Source: a virus (lineage: Duplodnaviria > Caudoviricetes). Taken from it: a stretch of DNA of 64,000 nt. Under the pieces are notes generated by a model. The model did no database searches. It worked only from the letters and a program-made list of their open reading frames with translations, and was not told the DNA's origin. Where the stretch lies: IMG/VR virus record IMGVR_UViG_3300036784_000120, positions 32,001-96,000 of that record. One strand, 5' to 3'. The first letter of the stretch is position 1. Every line of letters begins with the position of its first letter. Shown here piece after piece: positions 42,629-53,287 of this stretch. A program made the translations under genes and the position numbers.

Positions 42629-42951
42629 TGTGCGGCCCCCGGTGTCCCATGCACCGCTGCCGTCCACGCCGTGATCACGGCCGTCACGAACCGGGGATCC
42701 TGGCTCATCAGCCCGTCCAGGTCGGCAGGCACCGGATGACCGTCGTCGTCCTCCACGTTCCACGACTCCAGGGCGTAGCCGAGCGTCGCGGTCATATGGC
42801 GGAACGCCGCCAGGTCACCGGAGGCGACCGCAGCAGCAGTGTCGAGCATCACCGACATGGGCACCGGCCGGACCGTGATCTCCAGCCCTTCATACTCGGT
42901 GCCGGTGAAGTCCAGCTTGAACGGGGCGCGTTTCGGCCGGAAACCTGTCAC
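42625..42951 (-). CDS. Tail-chaperone-like protein
   Basis: YEGLEITVR...LESWNVEDDDGHPVPADLDGLMSQD. Confidence 0.5.
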   Translation of the reverse strand: MTGFRPKRAPFKLDFTGTEYEGLEITVRPVPMSVMLDTAAAVASGDLAAFRHMTATLGYALESWNVEDDDGHPVPADLDGLMSQDPRFVTAVITAWTAAVHGTPGAAQ

Positions 42952-44557
42952 TGTGCCGCTCCCGGTAGTCCGCCTGCTGCGGGCGGGTTCTGCGGTGGCC
43001 GCGGCGGGCCCGCGGCGGCGGGACGCATCTGCGGTGCCGACGGCGGCCGTGGCCCCTGCTGCCCGCCGCCGGCCCTGGCGGCGGCCTGCTGCGTGATCGC
43101 CGTGCCCGCCTGCGCGAGTCCCTGCAGCTGGCCGAGCCCCGCCGCGGCCTCCGGCGGCATGCCAGGCGGCGGATTGCCAGCTAGCTGTTCGGCACGTTGC
43201 GAAGCGGTAGACACCAGCGCGTCATGCACCTGGTCCACGTCCAGCTGCAGAATCGACGCCATCCGTTCGGTGATCAGGTCAAACACCTGCAGCGGCACGT
43301 GCAGCACCGGCGCCGCCGACATCTGCCCGAACATCGTCAGCAACTGCTGCGCCTGCTCATCCTGAAGCGGACCGAACTTCGCCTGCGGATACGATGCGCC
43401 GGTACCGAAGTTGAGCATCACCAGCGGCCGGATCACGTCGTAGGAGATGGATTCGGCGATTTCCTTCGCCACACCCTGACGCGACTTCAGGTAGAAGTCG
43501 GACTGGTCCTGCGACAGGCTGTAGGCGCCCTTCCCGCCGGTTGACGCGGACGCGAGGCCGAGGAACCCGGCCAGCACACTGCTGATCGCCCACGACGACA
43601 GGAACGACAGCGCCTGGGAGAAGAACAGGCCCGCATCCGCGGACGACGGGATCGCCTCGAACGCCTTCTGCCCGTCGATCGGGTGCACCAGCCCGACGAC
43701 ACCGGAGCCGCGGAGCTGGGAAATGTCGTCGGCGCGGGCGGTGGCTTCCGGCTGGTCGTTGCCGTAGACGACAAGCCGCTGCAACGCCATGTTCTCCAGG
43801 TAGTAGTACCAGAGATACAGCAGCTTCATCTGGGTCGAATGGCACCAGTACGCCACCTCAACCTCGGACACGCCCGTCAGCGGCTCCCGGTGCTTCCCGT
43901 GGGTGTAAATGTAGGAGCGGATCTTCGGGATATCCACATACCCCGGCACCTTCTGCCGCCTGGACAGCATCAGGTTCCCGCCGAACAGCCACACCTGCTG
44001 CCGGAACCCGTTCGCCTCCCCCGACCTGTCGTTATACCGGGCCTGGCACGTGGCAGGCGGGCGGAACGCGATCTTGTCGTAAACGATCTTCCCGTCCGAC
44101 TCGCGGACCTTGAACGTCTTCTCGAAAAACGCCCGCCGGTACAGCTGACCCGACGTGATCTGGCCGAGCAGCTCCGTCATCGGCGTCCGCATGCCGCCCT
44201 CAGTGTCCGGCGTCATCAGCACGCTGCGGATGAAGTCGCATTCGCCTTTGTCGCCCTTGCCGGGCTCAATCGAGAAGTCGGCTTCGCGGATCGGGAGGGT
44301 CAGCACCAGCTCGAGGGCCTGCGCGGTGCCGTTGCGGGAGAACATGGTCTTCAGGTCACGAGACGACCATTCGCCATATTCTTAAATCGAAGACATCACC
44401 CTCGCCGTAGTAGGCGAACAGCCGCTGACCGTAGTCAAACGAGGTCTAAAGTCCCGATCTCAGGACCCATCAGGGTCCGCTTGCCGCCCGGGCCGCGGGA
44501 GCCCTTGGGGGGGAGATCGGGGAAGGCGATCACGTTAGCGTCTTTACCGGATGCCAT
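42948..44557 (-). CDS. Portal protein (about 531 aa), interrupted by two 7-nt TTA-containing inserts
   Basis: Mu gp29/DUF935-like core; N-terminus MASGKDAN...GPEIGT|SFDYGQ...DVFD|YGEWSSRDLKTMF is restored by removing 2x7 nt. Confidence 0.82.
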
Positions 44558-44609
44558 CTTCTTGCATCACCCCCTCTCCGCTGCCAGGGGCGCACAAGGG
44601 CGCCGGTGA

Positions 44610-44631
44610 TGCACGTGCATATGCACGTGCA
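44610..44631. promoter_or_regulatory. TGCACGTGCA-TA-TGCACGTGCA operator, copy 2
   Basis: Perfect 24-bp palindrome 44609-44632 upstream of the portal. Confidence 0.78.
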
Positions 44632-44716
44632 TGGGGCCACGATACCGCCTGCCCGCATGCCGGGCATAGCCACGTACCGCTGTACGCCATGCCGACATGT
44701 GTGGTATGATGTACTT

Positions 44717-45967: not shown

Positions 45968-46188
45968 CGCGACTGCAGCAGGAGATAGCCGACTACCTGC
46001 ATAGCCCGGTAACCGCCGCCGAAGTCCAGACCGCCGCATACGTGAGGTTCGCGGCATGGATGGCCGCGCACGATACCGGGCCGCGCAGCGTCACGGTCGG
46101 GCAGATCGGCCGGGAATTCCAGAACCTCAGCTACGAGACTATCTGCCGGTGGATCAGGCACTACCGGGGAGGGGAGCAAGAGCAGTGA
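45964..46188 (+). CDS. Small HTH-like protein
   Basis: VGQIGREF..LSYETICRWI. Confidence 0.5.
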   Translation: MTRLQQEIADYLHSPVTAAEVQTAAYVRFAAWMAAHDTGPRSVTVGQIGREFQNLSYETICRWIRHYRGGEQEQ

Positions 46189-51026: not shown

Positions 51027-51165
51027 CCGGCCACCTTTCAGTTCACCGCCATGATTTGACGTTGCCCCGGCCGGAAGTTCACGCCCCAGGGGTGCTGACC
51101 GGGCATCCTACCGCCACGATCGGACATTCCCCCCGTATCACCGGGTACAGGTTAAACTAGATCCC

Positions 51166-51591
51166 ATGCCGTATGCCGATCCAGAGAAGCACAGAAAATG
51201 GCAGCGTGAGTGGATGGCTCGGCGGCGTGCCGAGTGGATAGCTGCGCACGGCCCTTGCGTGGACTGCCGCACTTGGGACGATCTACAGGTAGACCATGTT
51301 GACGCCTCGACAAAGGTCACTCACCGGGTCTGGTCCTGGGCCAAAGAGAGGCGCGAGGAGGAGCTGGCTAAGTGCACCGTCCGGTGTGCCCCGTGTCACG
51401 AAGCGAAGACGACAGCCAGCCGCGAGGATCCCCGCGGCGAGCAGCACTGGGCCGCGAAGCTGAAAGACGACCAGATACCGGACATCCGCGCCTCACAGCT
51501 TTCGATTTCACACCTGGCTAGGGTTTACGGCGTCAGCCGGAAGGCTATCCGCAATGTGCGCCAGGGAAAGACCTGGCTTCACGTCGCTTAG
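51166..51591 (+). CDS. HNH endonuclease with C-terminal HTH
   Basis: CVDC...QVDHVD...CAPCHEAKT; leaderless after TAAACT. Confidence 0.85.
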   Translation: MPYADPEKHRKWQREWMARRRAEWIAAHGPCVDCRTWDDLQVDHVDASTKVTHRVWSWAKERREEELAKCTVRCAPCHEAKTTASREDPRGEQHWAAKLKDDQIPDIRASQLSISHLARVYGVSRKAIRNVRQGKTWLHVA

Positions 51592-51594
51592 TCC

Positions 51595-53287
51595 CTATCG
51601 CCACGACTTGACGTTGCCCCGGCCGCGGTCCGGTTGCGCCTGGTCATCGTCGTCTGGCGAAAAGCCGTCCAGGTCCCACGGGGCCGCATCCATGTTCTGC
51701 TGCGCCTTCTCCATGATTTCCCGCATCCTGCGATGCCCGCGTGCTTCCTCCCCGATGCCCATGTCCGCGAGGTTCTGCGCGCCTGCCCACTTCCGTACGG
51801 CACCCGGCCCGTACTCGCCGAGGTGCGGCACGAACGCCTGCACCACGGCGTCGCCGTCGTCGGTGGACCGGCCGAGCCGCTCCCGGATGTCGTCTTTGCC
51901 TTCCACCTGGATCCGGCCGCTTGACGTGACATCCCACTGCGGTGTCGACAGGTCACCGAGCAGCATCTCGTCGTCCGGCAGGCAGATGTCCGGGCGGGCC
52001 GACGGGTCCAGGGCCTGCCGCAGCGTCCACCACGCTTCACTCCTGCGGTTGGCGAACCCGAACTCGCGGGTGGAGTCTTTCGCCTTCGACCCGCGGGACG
52101 CGTTGAACGCCAGCACCCTGGCGTGCTGCTCGCGGAGCCGGTCGACGACACCCGCGCCGATACCGATCACGTCAACCACGGCGGTGCGGGAATCGTCAGC
52201 GGACAGGATCGCGTTCACCCGCCCCGTGGTTTTCATCGTGTCTTCCCGCACGAACCGGCGCAGCTCCGTGATCACGGGCCCGTTACGGATCGCGAGGACA
52301 GTGCGGTCCTCACCGGTCCTGGCCACGTCCACCCCGACGGTGCGGGGCCTGCCCAGGTCCGGCTTGCCCGCAGCCTCCCACTCATGCCAGCGGGCCACCG
52401 CCGCCTCAGCCCACGCCAGCGGGATAACCGAATCCTCGTCGCCGGCGTGGAACTCGCCGAGCACCCGGTTCACGTAGATCGCTGACGTTTCACCCCACTG
52501 GCGGAGCCGCTGCGCCGCCCAGTCCCTGGTGACCCGCCCCGCCGTGATCGCGTCGTCGAGGGTGACATGGACCGGATACCAGTCCTCGTACCCCTGCCGG
52601 CGTGACTGAATGTCGTAGAACCGGCCCTGCGGTGCCCCCGGCGTCGACAGTGCCAGCGCGAACGCTTCCCTCGTGCCGTCCCCGGCGCCGGAGAACGCGC
52701 CTTCGCACGCGTCGAACGTGCCCGCCGGGATCGCCTTGCTCTCGTCGTAGACGAACAGCAGCGAATCGGCGTGCGCGCCTTCGATCAGCGCCGCGTTAGC
52801 TGACGCGCCGGCGAACGCATGCCCGTAACTGAGCCGCAAGTTCAGGTTCTGCAGCTCCGCCCGGGTGAACGGGTGGCCGTCACGGACCCTCCCCCATTTG
52901 ATCCGGCCGGCCCACTTGTGGATTTCCGGCCACAGGTACTGGGTCAGCTGATGCCATGACCCGGCGGTCGTCGCGACCTTCCAGTCCACGCCGGCGGCGT
53001 CCCGGGTCAACGCAAACCACAGCACCGTCACCGCCGCGATGGTGCTTTTGCCCAGTCCTTAATCCATGGGGGCCGCGGACCGCTTCGCGTTTCCGCTGCG
53101 GCAGGCCCCCAATGATTTCCTCCTGGTATCCGGTCAGCCCCTCGCCGCGCCAGTCGATGCAGTCCGCGGCGAAGCCGAGCGGGTCATCGTAGTAGCGGGC
53201 GACGCCCTGCTTGATTTTCGCTGCGCGCCGCTGCAGTTCCAGCAGGTAGCGCAGCCGGTCAGCCGGCGCCTGTATCTGCGGGGTCAT
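51595..53287 (-). CDS. terL: Terminase large subunit (about 561 aa), interrupted by a 7-nt TTA insert in Walker A
   Basis: GPHG|LGKST restored; VYDE Walker B, LSTP, VGVDVARTGED, STDDGDA. Confidence 0.9.

Follow-up and report, generated by a model that had tools for sequence, protein, structure and literature searches.

The terL and portal loci

The stretch of DNA analysed here, called the window, comprises 64,000 nucleotides and corresponds to bases 32001–96000 of a 127,789-bp IMG/VR record that CheckV rates as complete. Its minus strand carries a gene for the terminase large subunit (TerL), interrupted within the Walker A motif, and a portal gene interrupted at two places (Table 1). GC content of the window is ~69%, and its sequence is present in soil metagenome runs. 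The nearest TerLs from cultured viruses are those of Streptomyces phage TurkishDelight (57% identity) and Actinoplanes phage phiAsp2 (53%). From the GC content, the actinophage source of these nearest TerLs and the soil origin, we infer that the host is an actinomycete. When ~400 Actinomycetes genomes were searched with TerL, only two distant matches were obtained, at 43% identity, and two genomes that had been reached through chance loci gave no match. ARAGORN found no tRNA or tmRNA gene in the whole 127,789-bp record; hence, tRNA-Leu(UAA) is not virus-encoded.

On the minus strand, the terL site reads CGC GGC CCC CAT GGA (53065–53063) TTA (53062–53060) A (53059) GGA (53058–53056) CTG GGC AAA AGC ACC. 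Frame 0, which opens at ATG 53287, ends at a TGA after 135 codons (product P0001). In the +1 frame, 487 codons can be read without interruption between 53058 and the stop at 51595; the product of this frame (P0002), which starts GLGKST, matches phrog_2, the terminase large subunit family (E 1.8e-25); a Pfam search returned no family for TerL. Skipping 7 nt (53062..53056) joins the two ORFs and gives RGPHGLGKST, thereby restoring the Walker A motif GxxxxGK[ST] of a TerL P-loop ATPase in the form GPHGLGKS. Among 120 close homologues, ~100 carry (V)RGPHGLGKS in a single frame, within ORFs of ~555–570 aa. Upstream of the gap, TerL aligns collinearly with the N-terminal regions of homologues that are full-length (P0004, P0018 and P0020). 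Thus, the last correctly decoded codon is followed immediately by a rare UUA in the frame of ATG 53287, and the take-off and landing codons are both GGA. All of this agrees with an earlier sequence-only reading of the locus. That reading had placed a 7-nt insert in the terminase Walker A motif, with coordinates that prove exact on the minus strand, and had noted that its removal restores GPHGLGKST and fuses the two ORFs, and that identical GGA codons flank an in-frame TTA.

Table 1. Positions of the terL and portal features in the window
Feature	Position	Strand	Remarks
Shine–Dalgarno-like AGGAGGA, just 5′ of the hairpin	53118..53124	−	
5′ hairpin, 3′ end 2 nt before the take-off codon	53067..53111	−	predicted fold and conservation
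TerL N-terminal part, to take-off GGA	53063..53287	−	~75 aa, ends EAVRGPHG
Proposed untranslated gap of 7 nt (TTA, A, landing GGA)	53056..53062	−	relatives gapped at the same place
TerL C-terminal part, from CTG (LGKST) to the stop	51595..53055	−	rest of the ATPase, and nuclease domain
TGA ending the 135-aa frame-0 product if UUA is decoded normally	52880..52882	−	
Portal gene (Portal_Mu family), ATG 44557 through two gaps to the stop	42948..44557	−	PF06074, E 1.6e-24
Portal site 1, ACT TTA G ACC	44443..44452	−	7-nt gap, 44449–44443
Portal site 2, GAT TTA A GAA	44379..44388	−	7-nt gap, 44385–44379

TTA is the rarest Leu codon in the window, with 8 occurrences among 27,686 codons (106 conservative ORFs). 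The same count gave 230 AGG codons versus 31 AGA. Because TTA is so rare, the presence of in-frame TTAs at three frame breaks in two packaging genes far exceeds chance expectation. Other exact matches to the pattern XYZ-TTA-N-XYZ in the window (at 46006, 22985, 7049, 2611 and 33252) are not frame breaks. Automatic GC3-based scans for further TTA frame switches returned either the TerL site or nothing, and missed the known portal sites; additional gaps may exist.

Gap length and sequence vary among relatives

Scanning relatives for TTA-led inserts, a check put forward in the sequence-only reading, uncovered gaps in both packaging genes. For TerL, 11 distinct alleles were found in independent metagenomes. 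All of them read CAY GGA TTA, and their gaps are 6, 7, 10 or 11 nt long. The gap TTAAGGA occurs in five alleles, whereas TTAGCGA, TTAAACAGGT, TTAATCCGGA, TTAAAAAAGGA, TTAAAAAACGA and the in-frame TTAGGA are seen in one each. The landing codon is GGA in eight alleles, CGA in two and GGT in one. Alleles L002 and L003 (81–82% aa identity) read CAT GGA TTA A GGA and continue with CTA GGC or CTG GGG; L006 and L268 also have a gap of the 7-nt form. What follows GGA TTA in the others is G CGA in L012/L136 (7 nt), AACA GGT in L267 (10 nt), ATCC GGA in L269 (10 nt), AAAAA GGA in L009 (11 nt), AAAAA CGA in L010 (11 nt) and GGA directly in L004, where the gap of 6 nt stays in frame and would encode GPHGLGLGKS. 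The four lengths represent every remainder modulo 3. Residues encoded by the gap would differ from allele to allele, whereas the flanking protein is invariant, with GPHGLGKS found in >100 homologues.

Gene callers handle these genes poorly. Several homologues are called as proteins of ~440–500 aa that start just past Walker A, and their DNA has the same site; in P0003, P0006, P0007, P0014 and P0028 the gene is split. Both parts of the ORF are intact in each of the eight alleles checked. Pairwise comparison of the C-terminal part among gap-bearing alleles gave dN/dS values of 0.17–0.33 at dS of 0.5–0.9, indicative of purifying selection. Just 3′ of the gap, alleles differ by CTG/CTA/CTC and GGC/GGG/GGT, changes that leave the protein of the resumed frame unaltered.

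The site was also followed in other samples. One contig from a second soil sample (run X2) carries an identical stretch with no indel. Run X4 contains a diverged strain with 7 substitutions, in which the site is kept and the alignment shows no gap there. With an 18-nt pattern of the site, 2 of 51 matches in metagenomes were TerL, both of them already known; in the genome_contigs collection all 52 matches were due to chance, none with TerL. Judged from these sequences, the gap in TerL is confirmed as a real, conserved site, neither a sequencing error nor a product of gene decay.

One relative that has no gap at Walker A (L270) carries a 7-nt TTA gap elsewhere. It reads ATA TTA G ATC, at WRQLI/NYLFPE (the slash marks the join), ~130 nt upstream of gene start 701 and further into TerL than Walker A. 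TTA gaps therefore occur at more than one position in TerL.

A conserved hairpin and an SD-like element lie upstream of the TerL gap

The RNA just 5′ of the take-off codon is predicted to fold into a G/C-rich hairpin. Its outer stem consists of 7 G/C pairs, formed by 53110–53104 with 53074–53068, and is followed by an inner CCGC/GCGG stem and a variable apex. Every gap-bearing allele has the same two arms (5′ GGGGGCC..CCGC and 3′ GCGG..GGCCCCC), and variation is found in the apical 14 nt. In gap-less relatives, the peptide IGGLPxRKRxAVRGPH is likewise encoded, but with different synonymous codons, and the predicted folding is weaker, with a mean minimum free energy of about −22 kcal/mol versus −30 to −36 kcal/mol for alleles with a gap. 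For the window, the hairpin has a predicted energy of −31 kcal/mol (z −3.5). The stem is kept even in L136 and L267, where the G-run is offset from the codons (MGA for IGG), and in L267 it is lengthened by a CGC-to-CGG change. RNAalifold counted 15 pairs, 0 of them varying, so support for the hairpin comes from conservation at synonymous sites rather than from covariation. Alternatively, the arms may be invariant because a segment of ~50 nt spread recently by recombination.

The AGGAGGA element 5′ of the hairpin is present in 11 of 11 gap-bearing alleles versus 6 of 17 gap-less relatives. This enrichment is suggestive only, since the alleles are related. By prediction and conservation, then, the TerL site has the stem-loop and upstream SD-like element expected of a site of the phiHau3 type (see below).

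Two gaps in the portal gene and their counterparts in relatives

The portal gene reads GGG ACT TTA G ACC TCG and, 19 codons on, TTC GAT TTA A GAA TAT, which places both gaps within the first 60 codons. Skipping 7 nt gives EIGT/SFDYGQ at site 1 and GDVFD/YGEW at site 2, and the doubly skipped product, EIGT/SFDYGQRLFAYYGEGDVFD/YGEW, is collinear, without indels, with many uninterrupted Portal_Mu relatives (e.g. L210–L226). At the position of site 1, L002 has GGA ACC TCG and no gap. The claim that two portal sites share the geometry of the TerL site holds. A strong structure (−40 kcal/mol) is also predicted in the portal gene, extending exactly as far as its first take-off codon. Separately, a nested palindrome composed of two TGCACGTGCA units lies at 44609–44632 of the window, ~55 nt upstream of the portal ATG.

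We aligned the portal N-termini of 62 relatives, representing ~50 distinct sequences, in a frameshift-aware manner. This revealed ~30 distinct alleles with one to four gaps of 4–15 nt at recurrent positions, nearly all of which start with TTA. Gaps after EIGT (5, 7, 8, 9 or 10 nt) all start with TTA and end with ACC, the take-off codon being ACT or ACC. Those after DYG are 7, 11, 13 or 14 nt long, and five of them end in GGC after GGC or GGT. Gaps after FAYY (4–8 nt) start with TTA or TGA, and those after GDVF and GDVFD span 7–15 nt. Most landing codons are cognate or near-cognate to the take-off codon: ACC after ACT or ACC in 11 alleles, GGC after GGC or GGT five times and CAA after CAA once. 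Many portal gaps, on the other hand, land on codons that match the take-off codon at only two of three positions. For three gap types, one of 9 nt (L227) and two of 15 nt (L208 and L235/L243), the length is divisible by 3 and the gap includes an in-frame stop. No single ±1 shift could rescue such an allele; the block must be skipped.

In L228, L230, L236 and L240, some of the FAYY gaps start with the stop codon TGA, as in TAT TGA C GGA. Here, a stop codon may take the place of UUA as the slow A-site codon.

Translational bypassing as the probable reading of the gaps

We think it probable, at roughly 0.63, that the terL gap is a site of programmed short translational bypass, triggered by UUA, in which the ribosome hops 7 nt from GGA to GGA. 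The ribosome translating terL would arrive with GGA (Gly) in the P site, while its A site holds UUA, a Leu codon that is very rare here. Slow decoding of UUA, or limiting tRNA, would allow the peptidyl-tRNA-Gly to release GGA. The mRNA would then slide by 7 nt, the tRNA would re-pair with the identical GGA and decoding would restart at CUG, yielding the P-loop GPHGLGKST and full-length TerL of ~560 aa. Ribosomes that decode UUA would make the 135-aa dead-end product. Likely stimulators would be the conserved G/C-rich hairpin, which ends 2 nt before the take-off codon, and the AGGAGGA 5′ of it. With the same design at the two portal sites, both packaging proteins would depend on the same event.

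The sites have several elements in common: after a take-off codon comes an in-frame UUA, the gap is arbitrary in length and content, the codon used for landing matches in most cases, and a hairpin lies on the 5′ side. This design is shared with the sites of phiHau3, StrepC.1 and S. catenulae, which favours a hop. The UUA-linked bypass put forward in the sequence-only reading thus gains support, as comparison with relatives favours bypassing over frameshifting. Several observations count against bypassing: landing on CGA in two TerL alleles, the many portal landing codons that match at only two of three positions, the in-frame allele L004, the lack of covariation in the hairpin, and the textbook −1 slippery heptamers (A_AAA_AAG and A_AAA_AAC) of the 11-nt alleles.

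These heptamers, in L009 and L010, are among the arguments for programmed ±1 frameshifting, the main rival, which we regard as unlikely overall. Here UUA would be read as Leu and followed by a +1 shift at UUA_A, or by a −1 shift on A_AAA_AAG/C in the 11-nt alleles; the gap would be translated, and TerL would carry a small P-loop insertion (GPHGLGLGKST for the window). The in-frame allele L004/P0005 encodes exactly GPHGLGLGKS, equivalent to the +1-shift product, so an insertion of two residues in the P-loop may be tolerated. Moreover, UAAGGA is SD-like, and UUA AGG A loosely resembles CUU AGG C, the frameshift site of yeast Ty1. Yet sister alleles would need shifts in opposite directions, and neither TTAGCGA nor the 10-nt gaps contain a shift-prone motif. 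Residues that vary between alleles would be inserted into a motif otherwise invariant in >100 homologues, and the multiple-of-3 portal gaps with in-frame stops would be left unexplained. Particular mechanisms fit no better. For a +1 slip of the prfB or Ty1 type before UUA is decoded, the tRNA would have to move from GGA to GAU, where it cannot re-pair, and the ribosome would meet UAA at once. For a +1 shift after UUA is decoded, the A-site codon would be AGG, which is not rare here, and the TTAGCGA allele has GCG in its place; a Ty1-like shift at a hungry AGG codon was set aside because AGG is common. As for −1 shifting of the dnaX type, the window requires +1 and has no heptamer, and A_AAA_AAG/C is confined to L009 and L010. 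For phiHau3, frameshifting was likewise disfavoured by Antonov et al. (PMC10732093).

It is also conceivable, but very unlikely, that the insert is a neutral lesion in an element, defective or satellite-like, whose terL and portal genes are undergoing decay. Splitting of terL by gene callers would fit such decay. However, the dN/dS values stay low even where dS reaches 0.9, both halves are open in the alleles checked, the supposed lesion always retains GGA-TTA and the hairpin, and the viral record is rated complete. In addition, no break other than TTA gaps was encountered in the packaging genes. One finding named in advance as overturning the sequence-only reading was a transposon footprint that inactivates the gene and is missing from viable relatives; instead, the gap is conserved under purifying selection. 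Slightly less probable still is removal of the gap at the RNA level before translation, whether through editing or excision by some unspecified step or through polymerase slippage. The gap would then only appear to be untranslated, and the A6 run of the 11-nt alleles could permit some transcriptional slippage. But the 7-nt and 10-nt gaps lack a homopolymer, the gap is carried in DNA contigs, and we know of no mechanism that excises 4–15 nt from bacterial mRNA. Finally, nothing beyond the presence of a short indel points to a sequencing or assembly artefact. This explanation, which the sequence-only reading had already argued against, is refuted by the recurrence of the site in independent assemblies from many samples and in the contigs of runs X2 and X4.

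Gain and loss of gaps, and neighbouring mobile elements

In a quick maximum-likelihood tree of the TerL C-terminal part, gap-bearing alleles do not group together but are scattered among gap-less ones within a clade of 25 rows. In seven close gap-less alleles (L118, L120, L122, L123, L125, L130 and L151), Gly-Leu of the P-loop is encoded by GGA TTG, both rare codons. Several gap-less alleles read CAT GGA TTG GGN, which equals the window allele minus one exact 7-nt indel, GGAT[TAAGGAC]TG. This one-indel distance suggests that the gap was gained or lost recently.

Other relatives carry larger insertions nearby. Directly after GPHGLGK, in-frame inserts of ~148 aa are found in L137, L138, L142, L145 and L196 (~1.1 kb in L196). 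Most likely these are inteins, in which case the P-loop DNA is a target of homing elements. The gap in TerL lies two to three codons from the intein site, and we speculate that it may block invasion by inteins or homing endonucleases, by analogy with T4 gene 60, whose gap protects against MobA. The portal genes of L004 and L005 gave faint Hint/LAGLIDADG matches.

Directly after the terL stop, the window contains a gene for an HNH endonuclease (51055–51591, plus strand; phrog_4234, E 9e-30). It is flanked by two copies of the last 9–10 terL codons, at 51595–51624 and ~51043–51072, and both copies within the region 51043–51624 encode GRGNVKSWR followed by a stop. This region looks like a mobile cassette inserted at the 3′ end of terL.

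More broadly, and as a tentative proposal that we consider possible but rather doubtful, the TTA gaps may be evolutionarily dynamic mini-inserts of 4–15 nt, gained and lost at hot spots in the two packaging genes among a large clade of soil actinophages that are uncultured. Together they would make up a late-gene regulon that depends on bypassing and senses the tRNA-Leu(UAA) status of the host.

Comparison with known bypass systems

One known case of bypassing is phage T4 gene 60, in which 50 nt are skipped and tRNA-Gly reads GGA at take-off as well as at landing. The site in the window is similar in its GGA/GGA pair, in the slow A-site codon after take-off, in the mRNA structure on the 5′ side and in the essential nature of the protein. 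It differs in that the gap is 7 rather than 50 nt and the codon after take-off is a sense codon, UUA, rather than the stop UAG. Gene 60 also has a take-off stem-loop that includes the stop codon, together with a nascent-peptide signal, whereas the predicted hairpin in the window lies wholly 5′ of the take-off codon. Mitochondria of Magnusiomyces capitatus are said to contain 'byp' elements, which are GC-cluster-like and 27–55 nt long. Like the TTA gaps, byps are numerous short untranslated inserts in essential genes with matching take-off and landing codons, and their patchy distribution among relatives suggests gain and loss; unlike the TTA gaps, they are mitochondrial, longer and not linked to a rare UUA. 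In E. coli, ribosomes have reportedly been seen to make short hops at hungry codons or at stops. There too, slow filling of the A site lets peptidyl-tRNA move over a few nucleotides to a codon that matches, but those hops are low-level or engineered and are not conserved in natural essential genes.

The closest precedent is phiHau3. The sequence-only reading had mentioned a proposal of UUA-linked bypassing for this phage's terminase, and the literature contains it: Smith et al. 2013 (J Bacteriol 195:4924) put forward UUA-mediated bypassing in the terminases of phiHau3 and StrepC.1. Antonov et al. 2023 (PMC10732093) provided partial experimental support and described 7-nt gaps in the StrepC.1 and S. 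catenulae prophages. In that work, Streptomyces yielded full-length product, and in E. coli the junction peptide was verified by MS/MS when UAA replaced UUA (PMC10732093). Thus, UUA bypassing has so far comprised three terminase genes and one partly heterologous experiment, a topic that the authors themselves describe as 'languishing' (PMC10732093).

The phiHau3 terminase region (g6/g7/g8) has two sites, GGC TTA CTCC GGT and TCT TTA ACGG TCC, each preceded by a hairpin. Several features are common to these phage and prophage sites and the window: a rare in-frame UUA directly after the take-off codon opens a short gap (10 nt in phiHau3, 7 nt in the two prophages and in the window), landing occurs on a cognate or near-cognate codon, a G/C-rich hairpin closely precedes take-off, and the gene is that for the large terminase of a high-GC, actinophage-like virus. 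On the other hand, the TerLs belong to different families (phrog_2 for the window and phrog_9 for phiHau3) with no BLASTP similarity. In the window, unlike in phiHau3, the gap interrupts the canonical Walker A motif and the portal gene has two more gaps; a full-text literature search gave no report of TTA gaps in portal genes. The clade of the window also differs in offering a natural series of gap lengths at one site (6, 7, 10 and 11 nt), known at the level of sequence.

This series is akin to a set of mutants made by nature, with four gap lengths and three landing codons at one TerL site and ~30 portal alleles with gaps of 4–15 nt. On sequence evidence alone, it speaks for skipping of the gaps and against shifting through them. 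It also provides constructs with which to examine the rules of short hops, including the contributions of UUA, the landing codon, the 5′ hairpin and the SD-like element. Actinophage annotation pipelines miss these essential genes, since gene callers divide them or cut them short. If the gaps are hopped, as is most likely, many natural examples are added to a barely documented mode of decoding. The kind of element is already known, as a candidate with partial proof, and the site in the window is itself new. With these comparisons, the range of UUA-linked bypassing would grow to include an unrelated TerL family, the catalytic P-loop and a portal gene, the last apparently without precedent.
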